Counted from the first letter of the stretch, positions 6,775-59,286 are shown. The stretch is DNA of 64,000 nucleotides from Squalus acanthias (GCA_030390025.1 CM059431.1:135410001-135474000); one strand, 5' to 3'. The notes: generated by a model from the sequence alone, not told the origin. Program-made: numbers and translations.

Positions 6775-6874
6775 ATTTAATCAACTTGAAATCGTCTCCA
6801 CGCTTTGGGTGATTCGGAACAACCAGCTGAAACTCGAACCACAGAAGGGAACTAGGGCAAGAAACTGATCCATC

Positions 6875-9800: not shown

Positions 9801-10816
9801 CGATGGTGGACGAGTATTCACGCTTTCCCTTCGCCTTCCCCTGCCCTAATATGCTTACCTCTACGGTAATTAAATGCCTCGATCAGGTCTTTTCCCTTTG
9901 CGGGACGGCCAATTTTATCCACACTGATCGGGGTCCCTCCTTTATGTCGAGTGAACTTAAAAGTTATCTCTCCCAACGTGGAATCGCCTCAAGTAGGACG
10001 ACACCATATCACCCAATCGGTAACGGAGAGGTTGAACGATACAATGCCATCATCTGGAACGCTGTCCGTCTGGCACTAAGGTCACGCAACCTACCGGACC
10101 AGCAGTGGGAAACGGTGCTCCCCGACGTGTTACACTCTATCAGGTCTCTTCTCTCCACATCTACTAATGTCACGCCTCATGAGCGATTCTTCAAATTCCG
10201 GCGTCGCTCTACACATGGGACGTCTCTACCGTCATGGTTGGTGGCTCCAGGCCCGGTGCTACTCCGGAGGTTCGTCCGGTCTGCCAAAAACGACCCTCTC
10301 GTTGACGAGGTGGAGTTAACGGAGGTAAACCCCACGTATGCGCACATATGGTACCCTGATGGCCGGGAGACCACCGTCTCGCTCCGAGATCTGGCTCCCT
10401 GCCCAACCGGTCACACGGGCCCGAATGATGAAGGATCCCACGACGATGATATCAACACTCCGCACCCCTATGAAAATGACGCCCCGCCTGGGACATCGGG
10501 GGATCTGCCGGCAACGCTACCGGATCAACTCAGGGAGCTGGACGCTCCCCGTAGGATGGCCACCCGAAACCAGGACGCCGGACAATCTCCAGCCACGACC
10601 CGGGATGAGGCCAGCTCAGCACCTGTGGGGACCCGCACCCGGAGTCATGATATTCCCAGTCCTCCACAGGATGATCAAGATGACGCGGACTCTACTGACT
10701 TACCGGTATGGGCCAAGCGACCCAGGGACCAGGACACGGTCCGGGGAGACGTGCCTTCCGGTCACAAGCAGAGAGCTAAACGTCTACGGCTATTTCTGGT
10801 CCGCCTAGTCCGTTAA
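6875..10816 (+). CDS. gag-pol: Gypsy Gag-Pol polyprotein (Gag with 2 Zn knuckles, protease, RT, RNase H, integrase), 1313 aa
   Basis: CFFCGGACHHRKSC and CNHCSKKGHFSKVC; LIDSCS protease; RLCIDY, FDLKSAYHQV, LPFG, YLDN RT; CDAS...EKEA...TDQ RNase H; HHCC and D-D-E (IDFKGP, HTDRG, EVERYN) integrase, in Gypsy domain order. Confidence 0.97.
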   Translation: MEKLLRPARLDLDPNAPAAAKVWKHWFRTFSNFLEECGADVPNKLRMLINYVSPHVYDYIEDCIVYDTAIEILQQLYVKSPNEIFARHLLATTQQQPGESLDEFLQKLRRLSKDCNLKAVTAEQYQEERIRNSFINGIASPFIRQRLLENKTLNLRAAYDQACSLDLAKKNADTYLPPRARAAAISFNESFGRSRADAPTDVDSTLTDDDPTLEAFADDDPALAASWQSGRKCFFCGGACHHRKSCPARNVTCNHCSKKGHFSKVCQSRASANQKGRSSKVYRSRAPVSFTAAIYGAAPPPRITVKATAAKGKIVPPPITAVFPQSLSHAATKVSVNGHTLSALIDSCSSDSFISKRAVNRLKLHIYPSDREIAMALTTLTTNSSGFCLVNLILNGRTYLSTRLGVLANLCSDVLLGQDFQKQHKKITFEFGGSRPELTISKVPFCALSAALLGEPSLFANLPPRCKPIATKSRRFSQDDRAFIEAEISRLLVDGIIEPCSSPWRAQVVIVRNPLKQHKKRLCIDYSQTINQYTDLDAYPLPRIDDMVNNLAKYKVFSTFDLKSAYHQVPLQDSDKKYTAFEANGRLFQFRRLPFGVTNGVAVFQRAMDGLVRQENLTDTFPYLDNITIAGHDQKEHDANLQRFFDVLRRRHLTLNESKSVKSVPSVNILGYCVGNGVIKPDPERLRPLQELPPPTNLGSLRRALGMFAYYAKWIPHFSDKIQPLLHAKSFPLEATAISAFNLLKRQLEKATLRSIDENLPFVVECDASEVAISATLNQGGRPVAFLSRTLQGSEFHYPPVEKEATAIIEAVRQWGHFLARRHFTLITDQRSVAFMLDNRRRTKIKNNKIQLWRMELAAFGYTICYRPGKQNVAPDTFTRAFCSSMSTSTLADLHMDLCHPGVTRMLHFVRSKNLPFSTEDVKKTCSSCRICAELKPQFFRPSDGLLIHAMQPMQRLSIDFKGPLPSSTRNTYLLTMVDEYSRFPFAFPCPNMLTSTVIKCLDQVFSLCGTANFIHTDRGPSFMSSELKSYLSQRGIASSRTTPYHPIGNGEVERYNAIIWNAVRLALRSRNLPDQQWETVLPDVLHSIRSLLSTSTNVTPHERFFKFRRRSTHGTSLPSWLVAPGPVLLRRFVRSAKNDPLVDEVELTEVNPTYAHIWYPDGRETTVSLRDLAPCPTGHTGPNDEGSHDDDINTPHPYENDAPPGTSGDLPATLPDQLRELDAPRRMATRNQDAGQSPATTRDEASSAPVGTRTRSHDIPSPPQDDQDDADSTDLPVWAKRPRDQDTVRGDVPSGHKQRAKRLRLFLVRLVR

Positions 10817-12289: not shown

Positions 12290-14216
12290 TAATTACCCTT
12301 GTGCAATCCCTTAGTGCCTGTCGTTCGAGTGCCTTTTCCTACTCTAGTGCTCCTATGCAGTGTTCCCCCAGTGTCTGCAGCATGGCTGGTGGAAGGCTGC
12401 TGTGTTTCCATGGGGGAGACAATGGATGGCCTTGCAGAACAACCTGAACCAGCTGTGGACCGAGACAATCCAGCTGTACACTGCACCACTTCGGCACGGG
12501 TGAAAGCAGCCTTGGCTGGCTGACCGGCAACAGCAAGAGCAATGGTGGACTGGCAGTGGTGGGAGCAGGAATGCTGTCATCCTGAGAGAGGACCGCAGGT
12601 TCTTGCTCCACAGACCCACTGCCACTCCCCCGGGGTGGCCCCTCAGCATTGCTAACCATCTGTTGGAGGACACCCTGCAAGGCCCCTTTCGACACTCGTA
12701 AACCCAGCGACGATGGCAGCAGCCTGAGCTTGGGTGGCAGCAAGCTGAGCCTGCAGGAGAGCAGTCTGTGCCTCCACTGCAGCAGTGAGACATTGGGTCA
12801 CTTCCGCCTGTGCTGCAATGGAAGCTGCAACATCGCTCATCACACCCAGCATCACGGCTGGATCGACAAGGTCTCTCCTGGAGTTGTCCATCATTTCCAG
12901 CCTGGAAATCATGGGCTCCAAGCTCTGTGCAAAGCCCCGTCCATTGTTGGAGCAGGACTCCTCCATGCTCCTTGACATTGACAAGAGGCTCTCTAGCAGG
13001 CTTGCCATTGCACCAAGCATTTCGGTGTGCATGGCCATCACCCTTCTTCTGAAGGCCGCCCCATCGAGGTCATCATCTGAGTCCTGTGTAGCAGGACTTG
13101 TGTGCGAACTCGCCCTCCGGGGAGCTTCCCCCTGAGCTACCCTTTCCCTCTGGCCTTGCTGCAGCCCACTCATGCCCGGTGCCTCACCCTGTGCAGATCC
13201 CGCCTCTATACTACCCTCTACATTCCGCGCAGTACCAGTTTCTGAGCTGCTGTCTACGAGTGTCAGATGCAGTGATGATGTGTCTTCTTCTTCTCCTTCA
13301 ATTGCCTCCACAGCATGATGGACAGACTGGCCTGCTGGCAGTTCTTGGGTATCTGAAAGCAGAAAGGCACAAGAGTCGGCTAGCGGTGAGGAGAAGGGAG
13401 AAAGCAAGATATCCATGCATGCACCATCAGCAGCTTGTAAGTGAGAAGAGATTGTGGGATGAGGGGGAAGTGGGATGTAAGAAGAAGGATTAGGAATGAG
13501 CATACCGTCATTGTCAGCAAGAGCTTCAACTTTGCCCGTTGCCACGGCATTGGTGACTGCCTCTCAAATGATGTCGAGCATGGACTCCTCCAGTTGGCTC
13601 AGGTTCTGTACAGTGGCTTGGTCGTCTCCTGTCTGCCATTGTTCCCAGCAGTTATGAGCCACCTTTGACTGCAAGAGAAAGAGAAGGGTGTGAGTGAGTG
13701 TAGTGTAATGTGTTTAGGTCTTGTTCCTGCCATAGTTGAATAGCTGTCAGTGTGTGTGATGTGGGTGTGAGTGTTGCAGCAGTGGTTAGGTTGTGAGGGT
13801 GAAGTGAAGCTATGATTGTGAGTTATGAGTGGTGATCGGTGAGGCTTGTGGTGCAGATGGTGGGAATTGGCATTTGCTAAAGTCTTCACTCACCTTGACA
13901 TAAGAACATAAGAAATAGGAGCAGGAGTAGGCCATTCGGCCCCTCGAGCCTGCTCCGCCATTCAATAAGATCATGGCTTGACCTGCCGTGTAAGGTCATT
14001 AAACTTCTTTCAGCACTGGATCCATGTTCTTGGCATGACGCTGGTGGCTGTGATGTAGGTAGCGATCTCCTGCCAGAGCCTTCTACTTTTAGCCTTCGAT
14101 GGATTCCTGCCACCCTGCGGGAACAGGACAGCCTGCCTTCTTTCAACTGCCACTACCAAGGCCTCGAGTGCAGCATCTGAAAACCTTCTTGCTCTCTCTC
14201 TGGATTGTTGTGCTAT
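12290..14216 (-). pseudogene. Harbinger ORF2, Myb/SANT-like DNA-binding protein
   Basis: Exon 1 RARRFSDAALEALV...LFP...WQEIA...RTWIQC*KKFNDL (Myb/SANT-like); later exons are homologous to 5494-6559. Confidence 0.82.
13900..13976 (-). mobile_element. 77-bp 5'-truncated CR1 tail insertion
   Basis: (ataagaac)n tail plus CR1 3'UTR, flanked by TSD CTTGAC (13894-13899 / 13977-13982). Confidence 0.9.
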
Positions 14217-14514: not shown

Positions 14515-15896
14515 TTCCAAATGCTTTTTTAATAGCTTTCTCAACTTACTCTGCCACCATCAAAGATTTTTGTATGTAGAACCCCCAGGTCTCTGTTCCT
14601 GCACCCCCTTTAAAATTGTAAAATTTTGTTTATATTGCCTCTCCTCATTCTTCCTACCAAACTGCATCACTTCAAACTTCTATGTGTTAAATATCATCTG
14701 CCATGTGTCTGCCCATTTCACCAGTCTATCTATCTCCTCCTGAAGTCTTTTACTATCTTCCTCACTGATCTAGACGAGGGAACTAGATGTAATATCTCCA
14801 AGTTTGCAGACGATACAAAGCTGGGTGGGCGTGTGTGCTGTGAGGAGGATGCAGAGAAACTCCAGTATGATTTGGATAGGTTGGGTGATTGGGCAGATGC
14901 ATGGCAGATGCAGTATAATGTGGATAAATGCGAGGTTATCCACTTTGGTGGCAAAAACAGGAAGGCAGATTATTATCTGAATGGCAAAAGATTGAGAAAA
15001 GGGGAAGTGCAACGAGACCTGGGTGTCCTTGTGCACCAGTTGCTGAAGGTAAGCATGCAGGTGCAGCAGGCGGTTAAGAAGGCAAATGGTATGTTGGCCT
15101 TCATAGCGAGAGGATTCGAGTACAGGAGCAAGGATGTCTTGCTGCAGTTGTACAGGGCCTTGGTGAGATCACACCTTGAGTATTGTGTGCAGTTTTGATC
15201 ACCTTATCTGAGGAAGGTTGTTCTTGCCATGGAGGGAGTGCAGCGAAGATTCACCAGACTAATACCTGGGATGGCAGGAATGACGTATGAAGAGAGATTG
15301 GGTCGATTGGGCTTGTATTCACTAGAGTTTAGAAGAATGAGAGGGGTTCTCATTGAAACTTATAAAATTCTAACAGGACTAGACAGACTAGATGCAGGAA
15401 GGATGTTCCCGATGGCGGGGGAGTCCAGAACCAGGGGTCACAGTCTAAGGATAAGGGGTAAGCCATTTAGGACTGAGATGAGGATGAATTTTTTCACCCA
15501 GAGAGTGGTGAACCTGTGGAATTCTCTACCACAGAAGGCAGTTGAGGCCAATTCATTAAATATATTCAAGAAGGAGTTCGATATATTTCTTAAGGCTAAA
15601 GGGATCAAGGGATATGGGGAGAAAGCAGGGACAGGGTACTGAATTTGGATGATCAGCCATGATCTCATTAAATGACGGAACAGGCTCGAGGGGCCGAATG
15701 GCCTACTCCTGCTCCTATCTTCTATGTTTCTATGTTACTACATTTCCGAAGTTTGTTTCATCTGCAAACTTTGAAATTATTCAGTGTATTGCCAAGTCCA
15801 GGTCATTAATATATATCAAAAAGAGCAATGGCTCTTAGCACCGACCCCTAGGGGACAACACTGTATACTTACCTCCAGTCTGAAAAACAACCATTC
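14515..15896 (-). mobile_element. Old CR1 fragment split by a younger CR1
   Basis: Minus-strand RT remnants at 14515-14765 and 15736-15896 (tcatctgcaaacttt = KFADE/D). Confidence 0.7.
14766..15735 (+). mobile_element. CR1 LINE 3' part (RT C-terminus and tail)
   Basis: SKFADDTKLGG...HLEYCVQF...; tail tctatgtttctatg; very similar to 27718-28633. Confidence 0.95.
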
Positions 15897-18800
15897 TTTT
15901 TTTTATTCATTCCTGGGATGTGGGTCTCGCTGACAAGGCCAGTATTTATGGCCCATCCCTAATTGCCCCTGAGAGGCTGGTGGTGAGCCGCCGCCTTGAA
16001 CCGCTGCAGTCCTTGTGGTAAAGGTACTCCTACAGTGCAGTTATGGAGGGTGTTCCAGGATTTTGACCCAGTGCCGAGGAAGGAACGGCGATATATATTC
16101 AAGTCAGGATGGTGTGTAACTTGGAGGGGAACTTAGAGGTAATGATGTTCCCATGTGTCTGCTGCCCTTGTCCTTCTAGGTGGTGGAGGTCGCGGGTTTG
16201 GGAGGTGCTGACGAAGAGGCCTTGTCGAGTTGCTGCTAATGCCATTGAATGTCAAAGGGAGGTGGTTAGACTTTCGCTTGTTGGAGATAATCATTGCCTG
16301 GCACTTGTGTGGCGTGAATGTTACTTGCCACTTATCAGCCCAAGCCTGAATGTTATCCAGGTCTTGCTGTATCAGGACATGGACTGCTTCATTATCTGAA
16401 GTGTTGCGAATGGAACTGAACACTGCAAAATTATCAGCAAACATCCCCACTTCTGACCTTATGATGGAGAGAAGGTCAATGATGAAGCAGCTGAAGATGG
16501 TTGGACCTAGGACACTGCCCTAAGGAATTCCTGCAGCATTGTCCTGGGGCTGAGATGATTGACCTCCAACAACCACAACCATCTTCCTTTGTGCTAGGTA
16601 TAACTTCAGACAGTGGAGAGTTTTCCCCCTGATTCCCATTGACTTCAATTTTACTGGGGCTCCTTGATGCCACATTCGTTCAAATGCTGCCTTGATGTCA
16701 AAGGCAGTCACTCTGGAATTCAGCTCTTTTGTCCATGTTTGGACAATGATGTCTGGAGCCGAGTGGTCCTGTTGGAACCCAAACTGTGCATCGTTGAGCA
16801 GGTTATTGGTGAGTAAGTGCCGCTTGATAGCATTGTCGACGACACCTTCCATCACTTTGCTGATGATTGAGAGTAGACTGATGGGGTGGTAATTGGCCAG
16901 ATTCGATTTGTCCTGTGGACAGCACGTACCAGGGCAATTTTTCACATTGTCGGGTAGATGCCAGTGTTGTAGCTGTACTGGAACAGATTGGCTAGATGCG
17001 CGGCTAGTTCTGGAGCACAAGTCTTCAGTACGACAGCTGGGAAGTTGTCGAGGCCCATAGCCTTCGCTGTATCCAGTGCGCTTAGCCGTTTCTTGATATC
17101 ACGTGGAGTGAATCGGATTGGCTGAAGACTGGCCTCGGTGATGGTGGGGACCTCAGGAGGAGACCGAGATGGATCAGCCACTCGGCATTTCTGGCTGGAG
17201 ATGGTTGCAAATGGTTCAGCCTTGTCTTTTGCACTCACGTGCTGGGCTCCACAATCATTGAGGATGGGGATATTCATGGAGCCTCCTCCTCCCATTCGTT
17301 GTTTAATTGTCCACCACCATTCACGACTGGATGTAGCAGGACTGCAGAACATTGATCTGATCCGTTGGTTGTGGGATCACTTAGCTCTGTCTATAGCATG
17401 CTGCTTCCACATTTTAGCATGCATGTAGTCCTGTGTTGTAGCTTCCCCAGGTTGGCACCTCATTTTTAGGTACGCCTGGTGCTGCTCCTGGCATGCTCTT
17501 CTGTTCTCCTCATTGAACCAGGGTTGGTCCCCTGGCTTGATGGTAATGTTAGAGTGAGGGATATGCCAGGCCATGAGGTTACAGATTGTGGTGGTATATA
17601 ATTCTGCTGCTACTGATGACCCACAGCACCTCATGGATGCCCAGTTTTGAGCTGCTAGGTCTGTTCTGAATCTATTCCATTTAGCACGGTGGTAGTGCCA
17701 CACAACACGTTGGAGGGGTCCTCAGTGTGAAGACGGGACTTCGCCTTCACAATGAATGTGCGGTGGTCACTGCTACCAATACTGTCATGGACTGTTGCAT
17801 CTGCGACAGGTAGATTGGTGAGGAAGAGGTCAAGTAGGTTTTTCCCTCGTGTTGGTTCTCTCACCACCTGTCGCAGGCCCAGACTGGCAGTTATGTCCTT
17901 CAGGACTCGGCCAGCTCGGTCAGTAGTGGTGCTACCGAGCCACTCTTGGTGATGGACATTGAAGTCCCCCACCCAGAGTACCTTTTGTGCCCTTGCTACC
18001 CTCAGTGCTTCTTTCAAGTGGTGTTCAACAGGAGGAGTACTGATTCATCAGCTGAGAGAGGGCGGTAGGTGGTAATTAGAAAGGATATACTTGCCATAGA
18101 GGGAGTGCAGCGAAGGTTCACCAGACTGATTCCTGGGATGGCAGGACTGTCGTATGAGGAGAGATTGGGTCGACTAGGCCTGTATTCACTAGAGTTTAGA
18201 AGAATGAGAGGGATCTCATTGAAACATATAAAATTCTGACAGGGCTAGACAGACTGGATGCAGGGAGGATGTTTCTCCTGGCTGGGGGTCTAGAACGAGG
18301 GGTCACAGCAGTCTTAGGATACTGGGTAGGACATTTAGGACTGAGATGAGGAGAAATTTCTTCACTCAGAGGGTGCTGAACCTGTGGAATTCTCTACCAC
18401 AGAAGGCTGTGGAGGCCAAGTCACTGAATATATTTAAGAAGGAGATAGATAGATTTCTAGACACAAAAGACATCAAGGGGTATGGCGAGAGAGCGGGAAT
18501 GTGGTATTGAGATGGAGGATCAGCCAGGATCATATTGAATGGCGGAGCAGGCTCGAAGGGCTGAATGGCCTTCTCCTATTTTTCTATGTTTCTATGTAAT
18601 CAGCAGACAGTTTCCTTGCCCATACTTGAGCTGAAGCCACGAGACTTCATGAGGTCCGGAGTCAATGTTGAGGACTCCCAGGGCCACTCCCTCCCGACTG
18701 TATACCACTGTGCCACCACCCCTGGTTGGTCTGTCCTGCCGGTGGGACAGGACATACCCAGGGATGGTGATGGAGGAGCCTGGGACATTCGCTGAAAGGT

Positions 18801-19331
18801 TTAAATCTGTGAGTATGACTATGTCAGGCTGTTGCTTGACTAGTCTGTGGGCCAGCTCTCCCAATTTTGGCACAAGTCCCCAGATGTTAGTAAGGAGGAC
18901 TTTGCAGGTTTGATTGGGCTGGGTGTTCCTTTGTCGTGTCCGAAGCCAGTGCCTGGGTGGTCCATCCGTTATTTTTCTTATTATTGTTTTCCGTAGTTGG
19001 TACAACCTAGTGTTTTGCTGGGCCATTTCAGAGGTCAGTTAAGAGTCAACCACATTGCTGTGGGTCTGGAGTTACATATAGGCTAGACCACGTAAGGACG
19101 ACAGATTTCCTTCCCTAAAGGACATTAGTGAACCAGATGGGTTTTTACGAGAATTCGATAGTTTCATGGTCACCATTACTGATTATAGCTTTTTATTCCA
19201 GATTTAATTAACTGAATTTAAATTCCCCAGCTGCCGTGTTGGGATTTGGCACTATCACCGTGCTAAATGGGATCATTAGGCCAGTCCTCTGGATTACTAG
19301 TCCAGTAACTTAACCACTATGCTACCGTACC
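15897..19331 (-). mobile_element. tRNA-headed single-ORF LINE (CR1/L2 group EN-RT), copy 1, decayed
   Basis: tRNA-like head at ~19235-19331, then APE endonuclease (LTNIWGL, DIVILT, GDFNVH, LLDL, SDH) and RT (KAMGLDN, FDIKAAFERMWH, MFADN); 3' tail gggatgggccataaat...poly(A). Confidence 0.88.
18076..18596 (+). mobile_element. CR1 3' fragment inserted in the tRNA-headed LINE
   Basis: CR1 ORF2 end and tail; short duplication (g)taat at both junctions. Confidence 0.9.
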
Positions 19332-19334
19332 TGA

Positions 19335-20370
19335 TAAACCACTACTCTCTACTTTCCGACTCATAGCCAATGTTGTATCCACGCTGCCACTGCCTCTTTA
19401 ATCCCATGGGCTTTGATTTTGCTAACAAGTCTATTATGTGGTACTTCTGCAAATCCTTTTGAAAGTCCATATATGCAACATAAACCACGTTACCTCCTCT
19501 CCGTTTGTTCATCAAAGAACTCAATCAAGTTAGCCAAACATTTGCCTTTAACAAATTCGTGCTGGCTGCCATTTATTCACCCATATTTTTCTAAGTGACA
19601 ATTAATTTTGTCTCAGTTTATTGTCTCTAAAATTTCCCCCACCGCCGACGTTAGGCTGACCGGCCTGTAGTTGCTGGGTGCATCCTTCTGACCTTTTTTG
19701 AACAGGGGTTTAACATTTGCAATCCTCCATTCTTCTGGCACCACTCCCACATCTAAGGAGGATTGGAAGATTGTGGCCAGAGCCTCTGCCTATTTCCACC
19801 CTTACTTCCCTCAGTAATGTAGGATGCATCCCATCCAGACCGGGTGACTTTTCCACTTTGAGGGCTGCCAACTTTTAAGTACCTCCTCTTTATTTATTTT
19901 TTTCCTATCCAATTTCTCTACCACCTGCTCCTTTACTGTAACATTGGCAGCATCCACTTCTTTGTGAAGACAGATGGAAAGTACTCATTTCGTACCTCAG
20001 CAATGCCCTCTGCCTCCACAAAAATATCTCCTTTTTCATCCTTATTTGGCTCCACTTCTTTTGACTATCCTTTTACTCTTTATATATTTATAAAAGATTT
20101 TATTGTTCCCTTTTATGTTACCCACTAATTCTCTTTGCGCCTCTTATTTCCATTTTTCAGCTTTCTTCTGCACTTTTTGTATTCAGCTTAATTCTCTACT
20201 GTATTATGAATCTGACATTTATTAAAAACCTCCGGTATCTGTTTCATTTCAACCTCAATTTCCTTAGTCATCTCAGGAGCTCTAGCCTTAGATGCCCTTC
20301 CTATCCCCCTCATAGGATGTTTCTAGTTTGTACCCGAACCATCTCCTCTTTGAAGGCCTTCCATTGAACA
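19335..20370 (-). mobile_element. Degenerate CR1 ORF2 fragment
   Basis: YMDFQK, reverse complement of NYRPVSLTS, and KSPG motifs. Confidence 0.8.
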
Positions 20371-21811: not shown

Positions 21812-23050
21812 CTACGCAAATCTGGCCATGATAAGTTCATCCCTTGTATCCCGGGCAGCCTTGTGCTCGCGTGCTGCTGCTGCTGCTGGTCGATACACCG
21901 GCGCTCTGACCTCCTCCTGCTCCTCCTCCTCCTCCAGATCCTCCTCCTCCTCCTCCTCAGCCTCCTCCTCCTCCTCCTCCTCCTCCTCATCCGAGGAGGG
22001 CTGGAACTGAGCCGCTTGCTCATCAGGATGCTGCAAGCCACGACACTGTGTGATGTTGTGCAGTGTACAGCAGACCACGACCATTCTGGAGACCCTGTAT
22101 GGTGTATACTGCAGGGTCCTGATCGGTCAAGGCAACGGAAGCACATCTTCAAAAACCCAATGGTTTGCTCGATGATGGACCTGGTCGAAGTGTGGCTGGC
22201 ATTGTAGTGCTCTTCAGCCTCGTTAGCTGGCCTCCTGATTTGTCACCAAGGAGCCATCCATTAAGTTGGTTTGGTGGATTGAAAAGCGGAGGAACACTGG
22301 AGTGCCGCAGGATGAAAGAGTCATGGCAACTACCACAGAACTTGCTGCAAACATTCAAAAACTCCTCCTTGTGGTTACACACCAGCTGTACGTTGAGGGA
22401 GTGGAAGCCCTTTCGGTTGACAAAGATAGCTGGGTTGTGATGGGGTGCTCTAAGGGCCACATGTGTGCAGTCTATGACGCCCTGCACCATTGGCATGCCT
22501 GCCATATTTGCAAAGCCAACCGAACGGGCGGTTATACTTGCTTGATCCCTTGAGAAGTGGATGTAATTGTGGGCCTTAGCAAAAAGGGCATCAGTAACCT
22601 GCGTGATGCAACTGTGGGCGGCCGACTGAGAGATGCCGCTGATGTCTGCTGATGATCCCTGGAAGGAGCCTGAGGCAAGGAAGTTGAGTGTGGTGGTGAC
22701 TTTGACAGCCACTGGTAAGGGATGTCCACCCGTTCCTCTGGGCACCAGGTCTTGCTGCAGCAGGCCACAGATCTCTTGGACAACCTCTCGTGAAAATCTC
22801 AGCCTCCTTTGGCACTGCTGCTCACTCATGTTGAGGTAGCTCATCCTTTGTAAACCCTCTGTTGAAGGTATCTCCTGCGATGAGGTGCCTCGATGCGCTG
22901 GCGCCTTCTGCCCTGTGCAGCATCAGGTGGCTGAGCAGGAGGTTGGGGCTCCTGCTGCTGTTGCTGCCTGAGCTGCCTGGTTCTGCTGCTTCCGTGGATG
23001 CTCCTCATCCTCATCTGAGTCCATGCAGAAAGAAAACGAATGGTTCCCAT
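21812..23050 (-). pseudogene. Harbinger (HARBI1-like) transposase, frameshifted
   Basis: [66 protein letters not shown], poly-E tail. Confidence 0.92.
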
Positions 23051-23328
23051 GCTGCTTGCAGATGCCTCCTTTGGGGAAGCGCTCACTGCAAGCGGGAAGA
23101 GGGTCTTCCAAGGAGGTCCCACAGTTGATAGATTGCAACCCAAATGTTCCTTTTGAGAGGTTTAGATGACTCTCATAAACTACTCAAACTTCACTGAAGT
23201 GGTTTACAATATTGTCTGATCCCCTCTGTGGAATTATTGCCTTGCAACTCTCTCCCTAATATCCATTATCTGATTGTTTTGCATATGGCACTTAATGTTC
23301 TTTTCACAAGTATGAGAGACCCTGAACT

Positions 23329-23759
23329 TTTTTTTTTATTCGTTCTTTGTGATGTGGGCGTCGTTGGCAAAGCCAGCATTTATTGCCCATCCCTAATTGC
23401 CCTTGAGAAGGTGATGTTGAGTCGCCTTCTTGAACCGCTGCAATACGAGTGGTAACTGAGTGGCTTGCTGGGCCATTTCAGAGTCAACCACATTGCTGTG
23501 GGTCTGGAGTCATATATAGGCCAGACAAGGTAAGGATGACAGATTTCCTTCCCTAAAGGACACTAGTGAACCAGATGGGTTTTTACAACAATCCAGTAAT
23601 TTCATAGTCACCCATACTAGCTTTTTAATTTCAGATTTATTTAATTAACAGCAGCAGCATCCCAGCATTCATGGTGGGATTTGAACTCGTGTCACTGGAT
23701 CATTAGTCCAGGCCTCTGGATTACTAGTCCAGTAACATAACCACTATGCTACCATTCCC
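23329..23759 (-). mobile_element. tRNA-derived SINE made of the 5' head and 3' tail of the tRNA-headed LINE
   Basis: A box tagcatagtgg, B box gttcaaatcc; body matches 55953-56235; tail matches ~58255-58333. Confidence 0.88.
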
Positions 23760-25064: not shown

Positions 25065-25352
25065 TCATAGAATCATCGAAGATAGGAGCAGGAGTAGGCC
25101 ATTCGGCCCCTCTAGCCTGCTCCGCCATTCAATGCGATCATGGCTGATCATCCAAATTCAGTACCCTGTCCCTGCTTTCTCCCCATATCCCTTGATCCCT
25201 TTAGCCTTAAGAAATATATCCAACTCCTTCTTGTATCTATTTAATGAATTGGCCTCTACTGCCTTCTGTGGCAGAGAATTCCACAGGTTCACCACTCTCT
25301 GGGTGAAGAAATTCCTCTGCATTTCTGTCCTAAATGGCTTACCCCTTATCCT
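25065..25352 (-). mobile_element. CR1 3' end insertion
   Basis: Reverse complement of the 15450-15735-type end with a (catagaat)n tail; tagaa duplicated at the junctions. Confidence 0.88.
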
Positions 25353-26065
25353 TAGAACCTTGGTTAGACCACACTTGGAGTATTGTGCACAGTTCTGTTC
25401 TCTATGTTACAAAAAGGATATAGAAGCAGTTGAGAAGGTGCAAAAAAGATTTACTGGGACGATCCCAGAACTGAGAGGGTATAACTATCAGGAAAGACTG
25501 AACAGGCTGGGACTCTTTTCTCACAAAGACTAGGAGACTAGAAAAGGTGGCTTGATAGAGGTCTTTAAAATTATGAAGGGATTTGATAGGGTAGAAATAG
25601 AGAAGATATTTCCACTTGTGGGGGAATCTAAAACTAGGCACCAGAAATTTAAGATAGTCTCTAATAAATCCAATAAGGAATTCAGGAGAAACTTCTTTTC
25701 TCAGAGAATGGTGAGAATGTGGAACTCGCTACCAAATTGAGTGATTGAGGCGAATAGCATAGATGCATTTAAGGGGAAGCTAGACAGGTACATAAGGGAG
25801 AAAGGAATAGAAGACTATGTGATAGTGTCAGATGAAGTAAGATGGAAGGAGAGTCATGTGCATCATAAAAATCAGCATATGTCTTTCTGTGCTGTAAATT
25901 CTATGTAATGCTATGTAACTTTCAAGTATCAAAGACCTAAGTGTATTCTGAAATGCTTTTTTTCATGAATAAAAGAACAATTTTATCTCCTTATATTTTA
26001 TGGGTACTGGCAGAATTTATTTTAAATTACTTCTAGAAATTACTAGCTAAATCCAAATTACTAGA

Positions 26066-28633
26066 GAAATACCAAGGGGCAGAAAACGTTAGTGGGAGTG
26101 GTATACAGACCCCCAAACAGTAATGCGGAGGTTGGGGATGACATTAAAAAGGGAAATTAGAGAAGCGTGCAATAATGGCACAGCAGTTATCATGGGTGAC
26201 TTTAATTTACATATAGATTGGGCTAACCAAATTAGTAAAAGTACTGTGGAGGAGGAATTCCTGGAGTGTATACGGGATGGTTTCCTGGACCAATATGTCG
26301 AGGAACCAACTAGAGATCAGGCCATCTTAGACTGGGTATTATGTAATGAGAAAGGATTAATTAACAATCTTGTTGTGCGAGGCCCCTTGGGTCAGAGCGA
26401 TCATAATATGATAGAATTCTTCATTAAAATGGAGAGTGAAGTAGTTGACTCGGAGACTAGGGTCCTGAATTTAAATAAAGGAAACTACGATGGTATGAGG
26501 CGCGAGTTGGGTAGGATTGATTGGGGAATGTTACTCAAAGGGCTGACGGTGGATAGGCAATGGCAAACATTCAAAGATCGCATGGATGAACTGCAGAATT
26601 TGTTCATCCCTGTTTGGCATAAAAATAAAACAAAAAAGGTGACTCAACCATGGCTAACAAAGGAAATTAGGACTAGCATAAGATCCAAGGAGAGGACATA
26701 TAAATTGGCCAGAAAAAGCAGTAAACCTGAGGATTGGGAGCAGTTTAGGATTCAGCAAAGGAGGACAAAGGGATTAATTAAGAGGGGGAAAATAGAGTAT
26801 GAGAGTAAATTTGCAGGGAACATAGAAACTGACTGTAAAAGCTTTTATAGATATGTGAAGAGAAAAAGATTGGTGAAGTCAAACGTAGGTCCCTTGCAGT
26901 CAGAATCAGGGGAATTTATAATGGGGAACAAAGAAATGGCAGAGCAATTAAATACATACTTTGGTTCTGTCTTCACAAAGGAGTACATAAATAACCTCCC
27001 AGAGATGTCGGGGAACATAGGGTCTAATGAGAGGGAGGAACTGAAAGAAATCAGTATTTGTAGGGAAATGGTGTTAGCGAAATTGATGGGATTGAAGGCC
27101 GATAAATCCCCAGGGCCTGAAAATCTACATCCTAGGGTACTTAAGGAAGTGGCCCTAGAAATAGTAGATGCATTGCTGGTCATCTACCAAAATTCGATAG
27201 ATTCTGGAACAGTACCCATGGATTGGAGGGTAGCTAATGTTACCCCACTATTCAAAAATGGTGGTAGAGAGAAAACGGGGAATTATAGACCGATAAGCCT
27301 GACATCGGTAGTGGGAAAAATGCTGGAGTCCATTATAAAAGATGTAATAGCAGAGCACTTGGAAAACAGTGACAGGATCGGACAAAGCCAACATGGATTT
27401 ACAAAAGGTAAATCATGCTTCACTAATCTACTGGAATTTTTTGAAGATGTAACTGGTAAAATAGATAAGGGAGAACCAGTGGATGTGGTGTATTTGGACT
27501 TTCAGAAGGCTTTTGATAAGGTCCCGCATAACAGATTAGCATGTAAAGTTAAGGCACATGGGATTGGGGGCAAGGTATTGACTTGGATAGAGAACTGGTT
27601 GGCAGACAGAAGGCAAAGAGTTGGAATAAACGCGTCTTTTTCCGAGTGGCAGGCAGTGACTAGTGGGGTACCGCAGGGATCGGTCCTAGGACCCCAGCTG
27701 TTCACAATATACATTAATGATCTAGACGAGGGAACGAGATGTAATATCTCCAAGTTTGCAGATGACACAAAGCTGGGTGGGCGTGTGTGCTGTGAGGAGG
27801 ATGCCGAAAAACTGCAGTATGATTTGGACAGGTTGTGTGATTGGGCAGAATCATGGCAGATGCATTATAATGTGGATAAATGTGAGGTTATCCACTTTGG
27901 TGTCAAAAACGGGAAGGCAGATTATTATCTGAACGGCAATAGATTGGGAGAAGGGGAAGTGCAACGAGACCTGGGTGTCCTTGTGCACCAGTCGCCGAAG
28001 GTAAGCATGCAGTTGCAGCAGGCGGTTAAGAAGGCAAATGGTATGTTGGCCTTCGTAGCGAGAAGGTTCGAATACAGGAACAAGAATGTCTTGCTGCAGT
28101 TGTACAGGGCCTTGGTGAGACCACACCTTGAGTATTGTGTGCAGTTTTGGTCGCCTTATCTGAGGAAGGATGTTCTTGCCATGGAGGGAGTGCAGCGAAG
28201 ATTCACCAGACTGATACCTGGGATGGCAGGAATGACGTATGAGGAGAGATTGGGTTCATTGAAACTTATAAAATTCTAACAGGACTAGACAGACTAGATG
28301 CAGGAAGTATGTTCCCGATGGTCGGGGAGTCCAGAACCAGGGGTCACAGTCTAAAGAAAAGGGGCAAGCCATTTAGGACAGAGATGAGGATGAATTTCTT
28401 CACCCAGAGAGTGGTGAACCTGTGGAATTCTCTACCACAGAAGGCAGTGGAGGTCAATTCATTAAATATATTCAAGAAGGAGTTAGATATATTTCTTAAG
28501 GCTAAAGGGATATGGGGAAAAGGCAGGGACAGGGTACTGAATTTGGATGATCAGCCATGATCTCATTGAATGGCGGAGCAGGCTCGAGGGGCCGAATGGC
28601 CTACTCCTGCTCCTATCTTCTATGTTTCTATGT
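26066..28633 (+). mobile_element. CR1 LINE, 5'-truncated, with most of ORF2
   Basis: Starts in the endonuclease (VGVVYRPP), runs through RT and ends in the (tttctatg)n tail; small deletion near 28255. Confidence 0.96.
26123..28279 (+). pseudogene. CR1 ORF2 (partial endonuclease plus reverse transcriptase), 718-aa open frame
   Basis: MGDFN, SDH, KSPGP, NYRPISLTS, LDFQKAFDKVPH, GVPQGSVLGP, FADD; N-terminally truncated and C-terminally frameshifted. Confidence 0.93.
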
Positions 28634-53559: not shown

Positions 53560-55143
53560 TTAAGGGGTTTAGCAGCTTTAACAGTGGATAAATCCCCAGG
53601 CCCGGATGAAATGTGTCCCAGGCTGTTAAGCGAAGCAAAAGAGGAAATAGCAGAGGCCCTGACCATCATTTTCTAATCTGCTCTGGCTTCAGGTGTGGTG
53701 CCGGAGGACTGGAGGACTGCTAATGTGGTACCCTTGTTTAAAAAGGGAGAAAAGGATAGACGAGTAATTACAGGCCAGTCAGCCTAACCTCGGTGGTGGG
53801 AAAATTATTGGAAAGAATTCTGAAGGACAGGATAAATCTTAATTTAGAAAGACACGGATTAATCAAGGATAGTCAGCACGGATTTGTTAAGGGAAGGTCG
53901 TGTCTGACAAACTTGATTGAATTTTTTGAGGAGGTAACAAGGAGGGTAGATGAAGGTAGTGCATTTGATGTAGTGTATATGGACTTTAGCAAGGCTTTTG
54001 ATAAGATTCCACATGGCAGACTGGTCACGAAGTTAAAAACCCATGGGATCCAGGGCAAAGTGTCAAGTTGGATTCAAAACTGGCTCGGAGACAGGAAGCA
54101 GAGGGTAATGGTTGATGGGTGTTTTTGTGACTGGAAGGCTGTTTCCAGTGGGGTTCCGCAGGGCTCAGTACTAGGTCCCTTGCTTTTTGTGGTATATATC
54201 AATGATCTAGACTTGAATATAGGGGGTATGATTAAGAAGTTTGCAGATGATACTAAAATCGGCTGTGTGGTTGATACTGAAGAAGGAAGCTGTAAACTGC
54301 AGGAAGATATCAATAAATTGGTCAGGTGGGCAGAACAGTGGCAAATGGAATTCAATCCGGAGAAGTGTGAGGTAATGCATTTGGGGAGGGCTAACAAGGA
54401 AAGGGAATGCACATTAAATGGTAGGACACGGAGTAGTGTAGAGGAACAAAGGGACCTTGGAGTGCATGTCCACAGATCCCTGAAGGTAGCAGGCCAGGTA
54501 GATAAGGTGGTTAAGAAGGCATACGGAATGCTTGACTTTATTAGCCGTGGCATAGAATACAAGAGCAGGGGGGTTATGCTTCAACTGTATAAAACACAAG
54601 TTAGGCCTCAGCAGTTCTGGTCACCACATTACAGGAAAGATGTGATTGCACTAGAGAGGGTACAGAGGAGATTTACAAGGATGTTGCCAGGAGTAGAGAA
54701 TCTTAGCTATGAGGAAAGATTGGATAGGTTGGGTTTGTTTTCCTTGGAACAGAGGAGGCTGAGGGGAGACCTTATTGAGGTGTATAAAATTATGAGGGGC
54801 CTAGATAAAGTGGATAGAAAGGACCTATTTCCCTTAGCAGAGGGGTCAAAAACCAGGGGCCACAGATTTAAAGTAATTGGGGGAAGGTTTAGAGGGTATT
54901 TGAGGGGAAATTTCTTCACCCAGAGGGTTGTGAGGGTCTGGAACTCACTGCCTGAAAGGGTGGTAGAGGCAGAAACCCTAACCACATTTAAAAAGTACTT
55001 GGATGTGCACTTGGGATGCTGTAACCTGCAGGTCTATGGACCTAGAGCTGGGAAGTGGGATTAGGCTGGATAGCTCTTTGTTGGCCGGCGCGGACACGAT
55101 GGGCCGAAATGGCCTCCTTCCGTGCTGTAACTTTGTATGATTC
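53560..55143 (+). mobile_element. CR1 LINE, 5'-truncated (423-aa RT frame 53793-55064)
   Basis: MDFSKAFDKIPH, GVPQGSVLGP, FADD, CR1 C-terminus and tail. Confidence 0.95.
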
Positions 55144-55952: not shown

Positions 55953-58333
55953 GGGAACGGTAGCCTAGTGATTACGTTACTGGACTAGTAATCCAGAGGC
56001 CTGGACTAATGATCCAGCAGACATGTGTTCAAATCCCACCATGGCAGCTGGGGAATTTAAATTCAGTTAATTAAATAAATCTGGAATAAAAGAATTGTTG
56101 TATCTGGTTCACTAATGTCCTTCAGAAGTAAATCTGTCGTCCTTACCTGGTCTGGCTTATATGTGACTCCAGACCCACAACAATGTGGTTGACTCTTAAC
56201 TGCCCTCTGAAATGGCCTAGCAAGCCACTCAATTGTAACAAACCACTACAGAAAACAATAAGAAGAATAAAATCGGATGGACCACTCGGCACCGACTTTT
56301 ACTTCAGACACAGCAACGGCACACGCAGCCTGGTTGACCCTGCAAAGTCCTCCTCCCTAACATCTGTGGACTTGTGTCAAAATTTGGGGAGCTGTCTCAC
56401 AGACTAGTCAAGCAACAGCCTGACATAGCCATTCTCACAGAATCATACCTTTCAGCCAATGTCCCAGACTCCTCCATCACCATCCCTGGGTATGTCCTGA
56501 CCCACTGGCAGCACAGACCCACCAGGGGTGGCGGCACAGTGGTATACAGTCAGGAGGTAGTGGCCCTGGGAGTCCTCAACATTGACTCTGGAGCCCATGA
56601 AGTCTCATGGCTTCAGGGCAAGCATGGGCAAGGAAACCTCCTGCTGATTACCACCTACTGCCCTCCCTCAGCTGATGAATCAGTACTCCTCCATGTTGAA
56701 CACCACTTGGAAGAGGCACTGAGGGTAGCAAGGGCAGAAAATGTACTCTGGGTGGGGGACTTCAATGTCCATCACCAAGAGTGGCACGGTAACACCACTA
56801 CTGATCGAGCTGGCCAAGTCCTGAAGGATATAACTGCCAGACTGTGGTGGGAGAACCAACACGAGGGAAAAACCTAGTTGACCTCGTCCTCACCAATCTA
56901 CCTGTCGCAGATGCATCTGTCCATGACAGTATTGGTAGCAGTCATTGTGGAGACGAAGTCCCGTCTTCACACTGAGGACACCCTCCATCGTGTTGTGTGG
57001 CACTACCACCGTGCTAAATGGGATAGATTCAGAACAGATCTAACAGCTCAAAACTGGGCATCCACCACAATCTGTAACCTCTTGGCCTGGCATATCCCTC
57101 ACTCTACCATTACCATCTAGCTAGGGGACCAACCCTGGTTCAATAAGGAGTGTAGAAGAGCATGCCAGGAGTAGCACCAGGTGTACCTAAAAATGAGGTA
57201 CCAACCTGGGGAAGCTGCAACACAGGACTACATGCATGCTAAAAAGCACAAGCAGCATGCTATAGACAGGGCTAAGCGATCCCACAATCAACAGATCAGA
57301 TCAAAGCTCTGTAGTCCTGCCACATCCAGTCCTGAATGGTGGTGGACAATTAAACAACTAACCGGAGGAGGAGGCTCCATGAATATTTCCATCCTCAATG
57401 ATGGAGGAGGCCAGCACGCGAGTGCAAAAGACAAGGCTAAAGCGTTTGCAACCATCTCCAGCCAGAAGTGCTGAGTGGATGATCCATATCGGTCTCCTCC
57501 TCAGGTCCCCACCATCACAGAAGCCAGTCTTCAGCCAATTCGATTCACTCCACAAGATATCAAGAGACGACTGAGCGGACTGGATACAGCAAAGGCTATG
57601 GGCCCTGACAACATCCCAGCTGTCGTACTGAAGACTTGTGCTCCAGAACTAGCCGCACCTCTAGCCAAGCTGTCCAGTCCAGCTACAACACTGGCATCTA
57701 CCTGTCAATGTCGAAAACTGCCCAGGTATGTTCTGTCCACAAAAAGCAGGACAAATCCAATCTGGCCACTTACCACCCCATCAGTCTACTCTCAATCATC
57801 AGCAAAGTGATGGAAGGTGTCGTCGACAGTGCTATCAAGCGGCACTTACCAATAACCTGCTCACCGATGCTCAGTTTGGGTGCTGCCAGGACCACACAGC
57901 TCCCAACCTCATTACAGCCTTGGTCCAAACATGGACAAAAGAGCTGAATTCCAGAGGTGAGGTGAGAGTGGCTGCCCTTGACATCAAAGCAGTATTTGAC
58001 CGAGTGTGGCATCAAGGAGCCCTAGTAAAATTGAAGTCAATGGGAATCAGGGGGAAAACTCTCCATGGGCTGGAGTCATACCAAGCACAAAGGAAGATGA
58101 TTGTGGTTGTTGGAGGTCAGTCTTCTCAGCCCCAGGACAAGGCTGCAGGGGTTCCTCAGGGCAGTGTCCTAGGCCCAACCATCTTCAGCTGCTTCATCAA
58201 TGACCTACCCTCCATCATAAGGTCACTGTGGGAGCACCTTCACCACATGGACTGCAGCGGTTCAAGAAGGCGGCTCCCCACCACATTCTCAACAGCAATT
58301 AGGGATGGGCAATAAATGCTGGCACTGCCTCAT
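55953..58333 (+). mobile_element. tRNA-headed single-ORF LINE, copy 2, decayed with a 3' internal deletion
   Basis: tRNA-like head at 55953-56045, EN (DIAILTES, GDFNVH), RT (KAMGPDN, LDIKAVFDRVWH, GVPQGSVLGP), shared tail and poly(A). Confidence 0.88.
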
Positions 58334-59286
58334 CCCAGGAACAAAAAAAAAAATATTTCTCTGTTGTTTGCAGCCCATTAATAGCTGCTGGCTGCCTTTA
58401 AGTGGCATCCGTGAAGCCCGATTTCCTACCCACCAAACAGGAGAGCTGGCTGCACGCCTGAAACATTGGCCCAAAAATTGCTGTGGCTGGCCAACAAACG
58501 TCACCCACCAATAGTTACACTTGCTCTTGCCCATATAATCTCCATGATATTTTGCCCTGCAAGTTGCTCAAAGTGTGCGATAGAAACATAAGAACATAAG
58601 AACATAAGAAATAGGAGCAGGAGTAGGCCAATCGGCCCTTCGAGTCTGCTCCGCCATTCAATCAGATCATGGCTGATCTGATCCTCACCTCAAATCTAAA
58701 GAACACAAGAAGTAGGAGCAGGACCCGGCCACTCAGCCCCTGGGCCCGCTACGCCACCCACAGGGCCTCGACCGATCCGAACTCAGCCTCATGTCCAATT
58801 TCCTGCCCGCTTCCCGTAACCCCTAATTCCCTTTACTTCTAGGAAACTGTCTATTTCTGTTTTAAATTTATTTAATGATGTAGCTTCCACAGCTTCCTGG
58901 GGCAGCAAATTCCACAGACCTACTACCCGCTGAGTGAAGAAGTTTCTCCTCATCTCAGTTTTGAAAGAGCAGCCCCTTATTCTAAGACTATGCCCCCTAG
59001 TTCTAGTTTCACCCATCCTTGGGAACATCCTTACCGCATCCACCCGATCAAGCCCCTTCACAATCTTATATGTTTCAATAAGATCGCCTCTCATTCTTCT
59101 GAACTCCAATGAGTAGAGTCCCAATCTACTCAACCTCTCCTCGTATGTCCACCCCCTCATCCCGGGGATTAACCGAGTGAACCTTCTTTGTACTGCCTCG
59201 AGAGCAAGTATGTCTTTTCTTAAGTAACAACAGAAAACGCTGGAAAAACTCAGCAGGCCAGGCAGCATCCGTGGAGAGAGAAAGAG

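Follow-up and report, generated by a model that had tools for sequence, protein, structure and literature searches.

The window analysed here is a stretch of 64,000 nucleotides (nt) from Squalus acanthias (GCA_030390025.1 CM059431.1:135410001-135474000), in which positions are counted from the first letter. It contains two copies of a long interspersed nuclear element (LINE), one on each strand, and one copy of a short interspersed nuclear element (SINE), all of which begin with the same tRNA-like head. It is near certain that the two LINE copies represent a family that begins with a SINE-type, tRNA-derived head, followed by a body that is shared with the SINE, a single frame encoding an endonuclease (EN) and a reverse transcriptase (RT), and a 3′ tail that is again shared with the SINE. 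The copy on the plus strand, referred to below as copy 2, occupies positions 55953-58353 and consists of the following parts.

55953..56048, plus strand: tRNA-Thr-like head (Rfam tRNA model 16.9 bits with a gathering score of 29, family alignment, relaxed ARAGORN)
about 55961-55971, plus strand: A box (sequence)
56027-56036, plus strand: B box, gttcaaatcc (sequence)
56049..56234, plus strand: body shared with the SINE (nhmmer profile match 55953-56238, alignments)
56235..56330, plus strand: linker and start of the open frame (alignments; N-terminus set beside the relative P0001 by eye)
56370..56975, plus strand: remains of an apurinic/apyrimidinic endonuclease (APE)-type EN, approximate and decayed (Pfam PF03372 and PF14529 on the homologous copies L042 and L046, BLAST mapping)
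57760..58225, plus strand: RT (Pfam RVT_1, E=4.6e-39 on L042, mapped)
58224..58353, plus strand: 3′ tail shared with the SINE (sequence, mapping)

In the head of copy 2 the anticodon arm is present twice in tandem through a 21-nt duplication (both arms together 55980-56021), and the body of this copy has a private deletion of ~45 nt. The conserved TAA at 56236-56238 is followed by a basic N-terminal stretch without an in-frame ATG, and a ~776-nt internal deletion at 58225 removes RT and C-terminal sequence. The tail contains the end of the frame (TAG, 58300-58302), a hairpin-forming 3′ untranslated region (UTR), and an A run at 58343-58353. The second copy, copy 1, is on the minus strand and is interrupted by a foreign repeat; it is flanked by a target-site duplication (TSD).

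15897..19332, minus strand: copy 1, same LINE family (sequence, alignment, BLAST mapping)
19332-~19236, minus strand: head, with the B box overwritten
to ~19013, minus strand: body
18869-18596 and 18079-17761, minus strand: EN, in two pieces
18595-18080, minus strand: insertion of a foreign repeat, ~515 nt
~16909-16234, minus strand: RT, then a 357-nt deletion near the 3′ end
16236-15897, minus strand: tail
19332..19343, minus strand: 5′ copy of the TSD (..gtggtttatca..), local alignment score 11
15880-15894, minus strand: partner of the TSD, aatggttgtttttcag (sequence)

The two copies align collinearly, with 80% identity in head and body, 86% in the EN-RT part, and 82% in the tail. An earlier reading of the window, made from the sequence alone and called the sequence-only reading below, had proposed this shared layout. 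The layout stands, while the extents needed correction in that copy 2 ends at 58353 rather than 58333 and both window copies are rearranged. By comparing 13 copies with longer flanks we obtained a full length of ~3.28 kb, made up from 5′ to 3′ of a head of ~95 nt, a body of ~225 nt, one EN-RT frame of ~960 codons, and a hairpin tail of ~65 nt. The SINE in the window belongs to the same family.

23328..23759, minus strand: SINE, same family (alignment, mapping, Rfam tRNA 18.5 bits)

This ~430-nt SINE is the LINE's first ~320-340 nt joined directly to its last ~125 nt; the window copy has a ~320-nt LINE 5′ part without a 12-nt segment.

Copies of the LINE family are present in thousands across the 3.7-Gb genome. 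Using a 448-nt query composed of the head, the body, and the first EN codons, we found 39 other places among the best 40 of 8798 first-look candidates, and the junction between the body and the open reading frame (ORF) was spanned in all 39. A query with EN only, chosen to avoid selecting for the head, gave 4853 candidates; the best 40 underwent scoring, and from these we compared 29 other loci. Upstream of EN, the same body or head was present at every one of the 29 EN-anchored loci and a different shared 5′ sequence at none; seven reach the start of the head and 22 are 5′-truncated at scattered positions from 38 to 410. Additionally, contigs of four runs carrying four organism labels (X1, X5, X9, and X12) align to the family from end to end with at least 88% identity (reference L045:400-3900), cover 29 of the 30 bins of that reference, and contain SINE-type joints. 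The family is therefore common to several species labels. The type of these runs could only be guessed, and their contigs cannot show transcript starts or expression; among the sequencing runs listed with matches to the family, none is recorded as RNA.

These results bear on the explanation that the arrangement reflects chance adjacency, a segmental duplication, or an assembly artefact at two loci. The window is repeat-rich, and nothing further speaks for this explanation. It is refuted by the finding of an identical junction, each time between unique flanks, in dozens of scored places spread over many contigs, and both the TSD of copy 1, which spans head to tail, and the matching contigs from four other organism labels count against it, so that its remaining probability is negligible. 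The recurrence of the head-ORF junction, which the sequence-only reading had offered as its reason for dismissing chance, is confirmed by the genome searches.

The 5′ flanks of full-length copies are mutually unrelated and diverge exactly at GGGAACGGTAGC, no extension beyond the head is seen among the copies compared, and the first nucleotide of full-length members is identical in LINE and SINE (GGG[A/T]A[C/T]GG). Because full-length copies start at the nucleotide of the SINE and their flanks diverge there, the module formed by head and body is part of the transposing RNA. The proposal that full-length copies begin at the tRNA-derived head therefore holds, as does the proposal that there is no room for an ORF1, at least for a canonical one: the 5′ UTR is ~335 nt long and holds small upstream frames only, and neither the copies compared nor any of the 29 EN-anchored loci extend 5′ of the head into an ORF1 or another UTR.

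The family shows the variable 5′ truncation, common 3′ end, and TSDs of a LINE, the TSD signal being weak overall. The mean score of flank pairs was 7.18 for the same copy vs 5.71 for mismatched pairs (permutation P=0.03). A TSD running from head to tail, as the sequence-only reading expected, is clear for copy 1, whose local alignment score of 11 is reached by 0.9% of 110 mismatched flank pairs; it is modest for copy 2 (score 8, reached by 11% of mismatched flank pairs) and unclear for most other single copies. The truncation points include a loose cluster at 105-135 (5/22), and two copies begin near 320. We considered such clusters as alternative 5′ ends and rejected them, since the flanks are unrelated and the clustering is within chance.

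The head is recognizable as tRNA-derived, and its likeness to tRNA is real but weak. At default settings ARAGORN finds no tRNA in the window and none in 16 loci, and the Rfam tRNA model scores 16.9 bits on the copy 2 head and 18.5 bits on the SINE, both under the gathering score of 29. With relaxed settings ARAGORN calls a tRNA in 18/34 heads, 11 of them Thr-AGT, vs 12/680 dinucleotide shuffles. In the majority sequence of the head, positions 9-19 form a perfect A box (TAGCATAGTGG), and the T arm carries a B box (GTTCAAATCC) at about positions 74-83. Direct reading further shows a D arm, then an anticodon arm containing AGT, and a second, tandem 21-nt version of the latter, in which CTGGACTAGTAATCCAGAGGC (majority positions 28-48) is followed by CTGGACTAATGATCCAGAGAC (49-69). 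The resulting distance between the A and B boxes is about 55 nt, and this duplication probably accounts for the failure of standard tRNA finders. Among the variants present in at least 15% of 34 copies, none falls at an invariant A-box position or within the B box. The 5′ terminus is thus that of a SINE2 element, with a tRNA-derived head carrying both boxes; the short (~100-700 bp), non-coding build of such elements is found in the ~430-nt derivative and not in the 3.28-kb LINE.

The coding part is that of an APE-type element that lacks long terminal repeats (non-LTR), with EN and RT in one element. Pfam matches on L042 and L046 are PF03372 (Exo_endo_phos) and PF14529 (Exo_endo_phos_2), then PF00078 (RVT_1), in one frame, and the best PDB match is L1 ORF2p (E=9e-11). 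The nearest protein relatives are EN-RT proteins of 846-1195 amino acids (aa), at most 45-47% identical and mostly on contigs of 3.2-4 kb. A 481-aa stretch of RT and C-terminal sequence is free of stops in 34 of 89 scored genomic copies, and the longest open frame among scored copies is 962 codons. The 5′ part of this 962-codon copy includes the head, and the frame begins immediately behind a TAA, without an in-frame ATG.

Set side by side, the N-terminus reads by eye TATKNN here vs MATKKN in the best relative, P0001, a likeness that suggests that the SINE-type module directly adjoins the ancestral protein start. In our own reading of the alignment, an ACG, the ancestral form of a CpG site, follows the Met-equivalent position at a distance of two codons. 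The beginning of the ORF overlaps with a second frame of 48-76 codons, which is shifted +1 relative to EN, and a -1 frameshift could fit here; no canonical slippery heptamer was seen by eye at this overlap. The sequence-only reading had instead taken an ATG within the body (gaaATGgcc, 19026 in copy 1) as the start of the EN frame. This candidate was rejected, as a TAG and/or the conserved TAA in CAGTTGTAAC lies downstream of it in other copies; only copy 1, in which the TAA is mutated, stays open in this frame.

Every copy looked at closely has stops or frameshifts. Together with the lack of an AUG in the frame and the single 3′ tail that serves both short and long elements, this fits an explanation in which the headed 3.3-kb elements are non-autonomous, over-long SINE-like passengers; their RNA would be made from the head, and the protein of a headless sister LINE with the same tail would copy it in trans. 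We consider this improbable. A headless full-length sister was not seen, another 5′ sequence being found in 0/29 EN-anchored loci; the coding part is better conserved among copies than the 5′ UTR; and open frames of up to 962 codons point to selection on the protein in headed masters.

The 3′ tail contains a hairpin formed by GGGAUGGG...CCCACAUCCC with the inner stem GCUGGC/GCCAGC, which has a folding energy of -22.4 kcal/mol (z=-3.4) in a representative copy. The pairs of its outer stem persist in 36-38 of 40 tails, where no covariation was seen. A 3′ stem-loop tail common to a LINE and its partner SINE is a feature of the L2/CR1 group, and the headed LINE, whose tail is of this kind, may belong there. 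Other habits are RTE- or Vingi-like, namely the length of ~3.3 kb, the single ORF, the short 3′ UTR, and the derivatives made of 5′ and 3′ ends by deletion. No clade name was obtained from the names of homologues, which were uninformative, or from the ESM Atlas, which gave only generic RT clusters. Both LINE and SINE end in GAAT(T)n(A)n, with T3 or longer in 7/12 LINE vs 2/30 SINE copies by eye. The majority LINE 3′ end consists of AATAAA, ~45 nt, a T run, and an A run, the first AATAAA being ~50 nt upstream.

The joint between the 5′ module and the tail that defines the SINE was found at 39 other places among the best scored of 3763 candidates. By eye, 30 aligned copies fall into at least two junction classes, with 4 copies unclear. 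In about 11/30 the sequence ...CAGTT is joined straight to the tail, and in about 15/30 the tail is preceded by 8-25 extra nt collinear with the LINE linker GTTGTAACAAACCGCTAC. Neither class is obtainable from the other through simple deletion, and two or more classes suggest traffic in both directions between SINE and LINE. LINE and SINE copies also differ within the module. The 12-nt body segment is present in 17/17 LINE copies and missing in 11/17 SINE copies, and the head haplotype 13G/21A/26C/32G occurs in 8-11/17 LINE copies vs 1-3/17 SINE copies; the two stem changes of this derived haplotype keep pairing as G-U. The head has been inherited within the LINE lineage and has kept changing there. 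The mean pairwise identity is 0.902 for LINE 5′ regions and 0.864 for SINE copies, and this greater divergence indicates that the SINE is probably older on average, which favours a capture of the SINE 5′ module by the LINE.

The module was also looked for in 80 distant relatives, which are loci on metagenome contigs. With head-plus-body and SINE profiles, nhmmer found no homologue of the module in these loci at E up to 10. Default ARAGORN called no tRNA head in 53 loci, relaxed ARAGORN made 11 calls in 30.4 kb, near background, and no pair of A box and B box was found on the plus strand of the relatives' loci. Since the 80 relatives lack the module, it is a lineage-specific acquisition. Tentatively, we infer that the LINE captured the 5′ module of the SINE and that deletion derivatives of the LINE later re-entered the SINE pool.

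The module is probably the LINE's internal promoter. Which polymerase it serves is a separate matter, and here we compared runs of four T (T4). At no position do half or more of the 12 full-length copies have a T4 run in common, while runs of four A, C, and G reach this level at 15, 12, and 9 positions, and the sole majority T4 run is at position 3305 of 3330. The T4 count per ORF is 8-56 in 45 related intact LINEs (observed/expected 0.60-2.66), and the two other LINE fragments in the window, 26093-28279 and 53760-55064, which served as composition controls for these counts, have 5 each. Because the A and B boxes are intact, the LINE shares its +1 with the SINE, and no ancestral T4 run occurs before the 3′ terminus, RNA polymerase III (Pol III) specifically is slightly favoured as the polymerase for the 3.3-kb LINE. 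The grounds are circumstantial, and we place this assignment a little under an even chance.

The best overall explanation, which we hold at a little under even probability, is a SINE-headed single-ORF LINE whose module acts as a promoter recruiting TFIIIC and Pol III. The LINE is a chimera in which the entire 5′ UTR is the 5′ module of the partner SINE, joined just upstream of the ancestral protein start. As an internal promoter, the module would regenerate the exact 5′ end in each round, with the A and B boxes most likely recruiting TFIIIC and Pol III, and Pol III could traverse 3.3 kb because the ancestral sense strand is T4-free up to its 3′ end. Translation of the resulting RNA, which would lack a cap, would begin at a non-AUG codon, for which the ancestral ACG near the Met-equivalent position is a candidate, and the RNA would then be copied in cis via the 3′ hairpin. 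The SINEs would be either module donors or internal-deletion derivatives of the headed LINE. Translation of a 3.3-kb uncapped, T4-free RNA from a non-AUG codon, perhaps aided by the tRNA-like 5′ structure, is the more doubtful step and is proposed tentatively.

Several observations weigh against Pol III transcription and the translation proposed with it. Transcripts made by Pol III are as a rule short and lack a cap. By our reading of the majority head sequence, the tRNA-like fold no longer has its acceptor stem; the conservation of the boxes is not significant, with only ~27 positions involved, and there is no AUG near the start of the EN-RT frame. The absence of T4 runs is statistically marginal: dinucleotide shuffles expect 1.4 runs (P=0.21) and synonymous-codon shuffles 2.0 (P=0.09), and P is about 0.01-0.2 depending on the null model. 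T3 runs are depleted too (8 vs 46 A3 runs), and the headed LINE is T-poor, with 19.6% T vs 26.6% in the window; much of the T4 absence is therefore explained by general T poverty. The 3′ T run is not conserved, ranging from T0 to T9 in LINE copies and being mostly T1 in the SINE, and the depth profile of the four runs, which are only guessed to be RNA, looks like genomic copy number. [quoted passage not shown]

The main rival explanation is a LINE driven by RNA polymerase II (Pol II), in which a template switch or recombination placed the captured head and body before a 5′-truncated LINE. The body would then be an internal Pol II promoter, as in other LINE 5′ UTRs, and the head would be kept through transcription start at or before it, or through a role in RNA stability, export, or ribosome contact. 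In the portions available of two reviews LINEs are held to be transcribed by Pol II (PMC5786205; PMC10886601), and an element of 3.3 kb must be translated. Composition can explain the T4 absence, the higher divergence of the SINE (0.864 vs 0.902) fits capture from an older SINE, and the 80 distant relatives without a head or body homologue make the module lineage-specific. On the other hand, the start nucleotide shared by LINE and SINE follows from Pol III initiation directed by the A and B boxes without further assumptions, and both boxes have stayed intact through the derived LINE-specific head haplotype; a Pol II promoter feature was not identified, though none was tested for. We regard the Pol II explanation as a serious possibility, if rather below an even chance.

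Small Pol III RNAs joined 5′ of a LINE are known from U6/L1 and other template-switch chimeras, which are one-off dead insertions with variable junctions, whereas all members of the present family have inherited a single junction. The body shared by LINE and SINE may resemble the Deu domain. In the part available of one survey, SINEs made of a tRNA head and LINE 5′ and 3′ parts are described in the RTE and Vingi clades only, with headless LINE partners (PMC5786205, Kojima 2018). The pairs Bov-tA/Bov-A with BovB and SINE2-1_ACar with Vingi-2_ACar share with the present family the combination of tRNA head, LINE 5′ part, and LINE 3′ tail, and internal-deletion ('bipartite') derivatives are involved in them as well (PMC5786205; PMC4494074). 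In the passages on BovB and Vingi-2_ACar, however, the autonomous LINE is headless, whereas here the LINE carries the head at its own 5′ terminus.

A shark SINE offers a second comparison. SacSINE1 is a tRNA-derived DeuSINE of 463 bp whose L2 partner, in the text available, shares only the tail (PMC2746220; PMC5499810). SacSINE1 and L2-2_CM resemble our pair in that a tRNA-derived shark SINE of about 430-463 bp has a tail matching a LINE 3′ end, and differ in that the passages available report only tail homology, whereas head and body are shared here (PMC5499810; PMC2746220). The majority LINE 3′ end, with its order of AATAAA, T run, and A run, recalls the T+ SINEs B2, Dip, and Ves, which have AATAAA signals, a Pol III terminator, and an A tail at the 3′ end (PMC8466645); in our LINE the T run has no fixed length (T0-T9), and its first AATAAA is ~50 nt upstream.

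In the available sections of one review, Pol II is given as the polymerase of non-LTR elements and Pol III as that of SINEs, and small-RNA promoters are described only in non-coding TRIMs (PMC10886601). The TRIMp3 elements Cassandra, Helenus, and Ajax, with Pol III promoters derived from 5S RNA or tRNA, provide a precedent in that a Pol II-type retrotransposon took up a promoter derived from a small RNA (PMC10886601). As described there, they are non-coding, at most ~1.3 kb, and of the LTR type, in contrast to the 3.3-kb protein-coding non-LTR element described here. Likewise, specialist reviews, in the parts available, describe LINEs as Pol II-transcribed and protein-encoding, and SINEs as having Pol III heads and as elements that 'cannot encode a protein' (PMC5786205; PMC10886601). 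Full-text literature searches found no description of a tRNA-headed autonomous LINE, Dfam and Repbase being outside the search. This agrees with the sequence-only reading, which knew of no earlier description.

The window contains several further transposable elements. The repeat inserted in copy 1 (18080-18595) is ~510 nt long and starts with CATAGAAACATAGAA. It occurs at seven or more further window sites, at about 180-495, 13923-13978, 15211-15735, 25090-25356, 28163-28633, 54708-54970, and 58619-59220, and also in the flanks of genomic loci. By direct reading, the flanks of copy 1 itself (19334-19600 and 15600-15896, minus strand) resemble the RT of another LINE (..VVNGCFSDW..GVPQGSVLG..); if this reading is right, copy 1 would be nested in an older LINE. 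Other coding remnants of the window are the following.

6869-10816, plus strand: frame of 1315 codons with aspartyl protease, RT, RNase H, and integrase, the pol of a Ty3/gypsy-type LTR retrotransposon
22149-22922, minus strand: frame of 257 codons with a DDE_Tnp_4 match (PIF/Harbinger-type transposase)
26093-28279, plus strand: LINE fragment with an open frame of 728 codons, its RT only 29% identical to that of the headed LINE
53760-55064, plus strand: LINE fragment with an open frame of 434 codons
59604-61370, minus strand: frame of 588 codons with a weak RVT_1 match and a GIY-YIG match, the domain pair of Penelope-like elements

The headed LINE may be the first Pol III-driven autonomous retrotransposon; otherwise it is a clear case of a LINE that took its promoter region from its own parasite. 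If the Pol III reading is true, the divide between LINEs and SINEs by polymerase would not be absolute, and a conserved SINE body, possibly a Deu domain, would double as a working LINE 5′ UTR. The origin of conserved SINE bodies is an open question that becomes testable with this LINE family. If the body is indeed a Deu domain, the link would extend to the vertebrate enhancers derived from the Deu domain.

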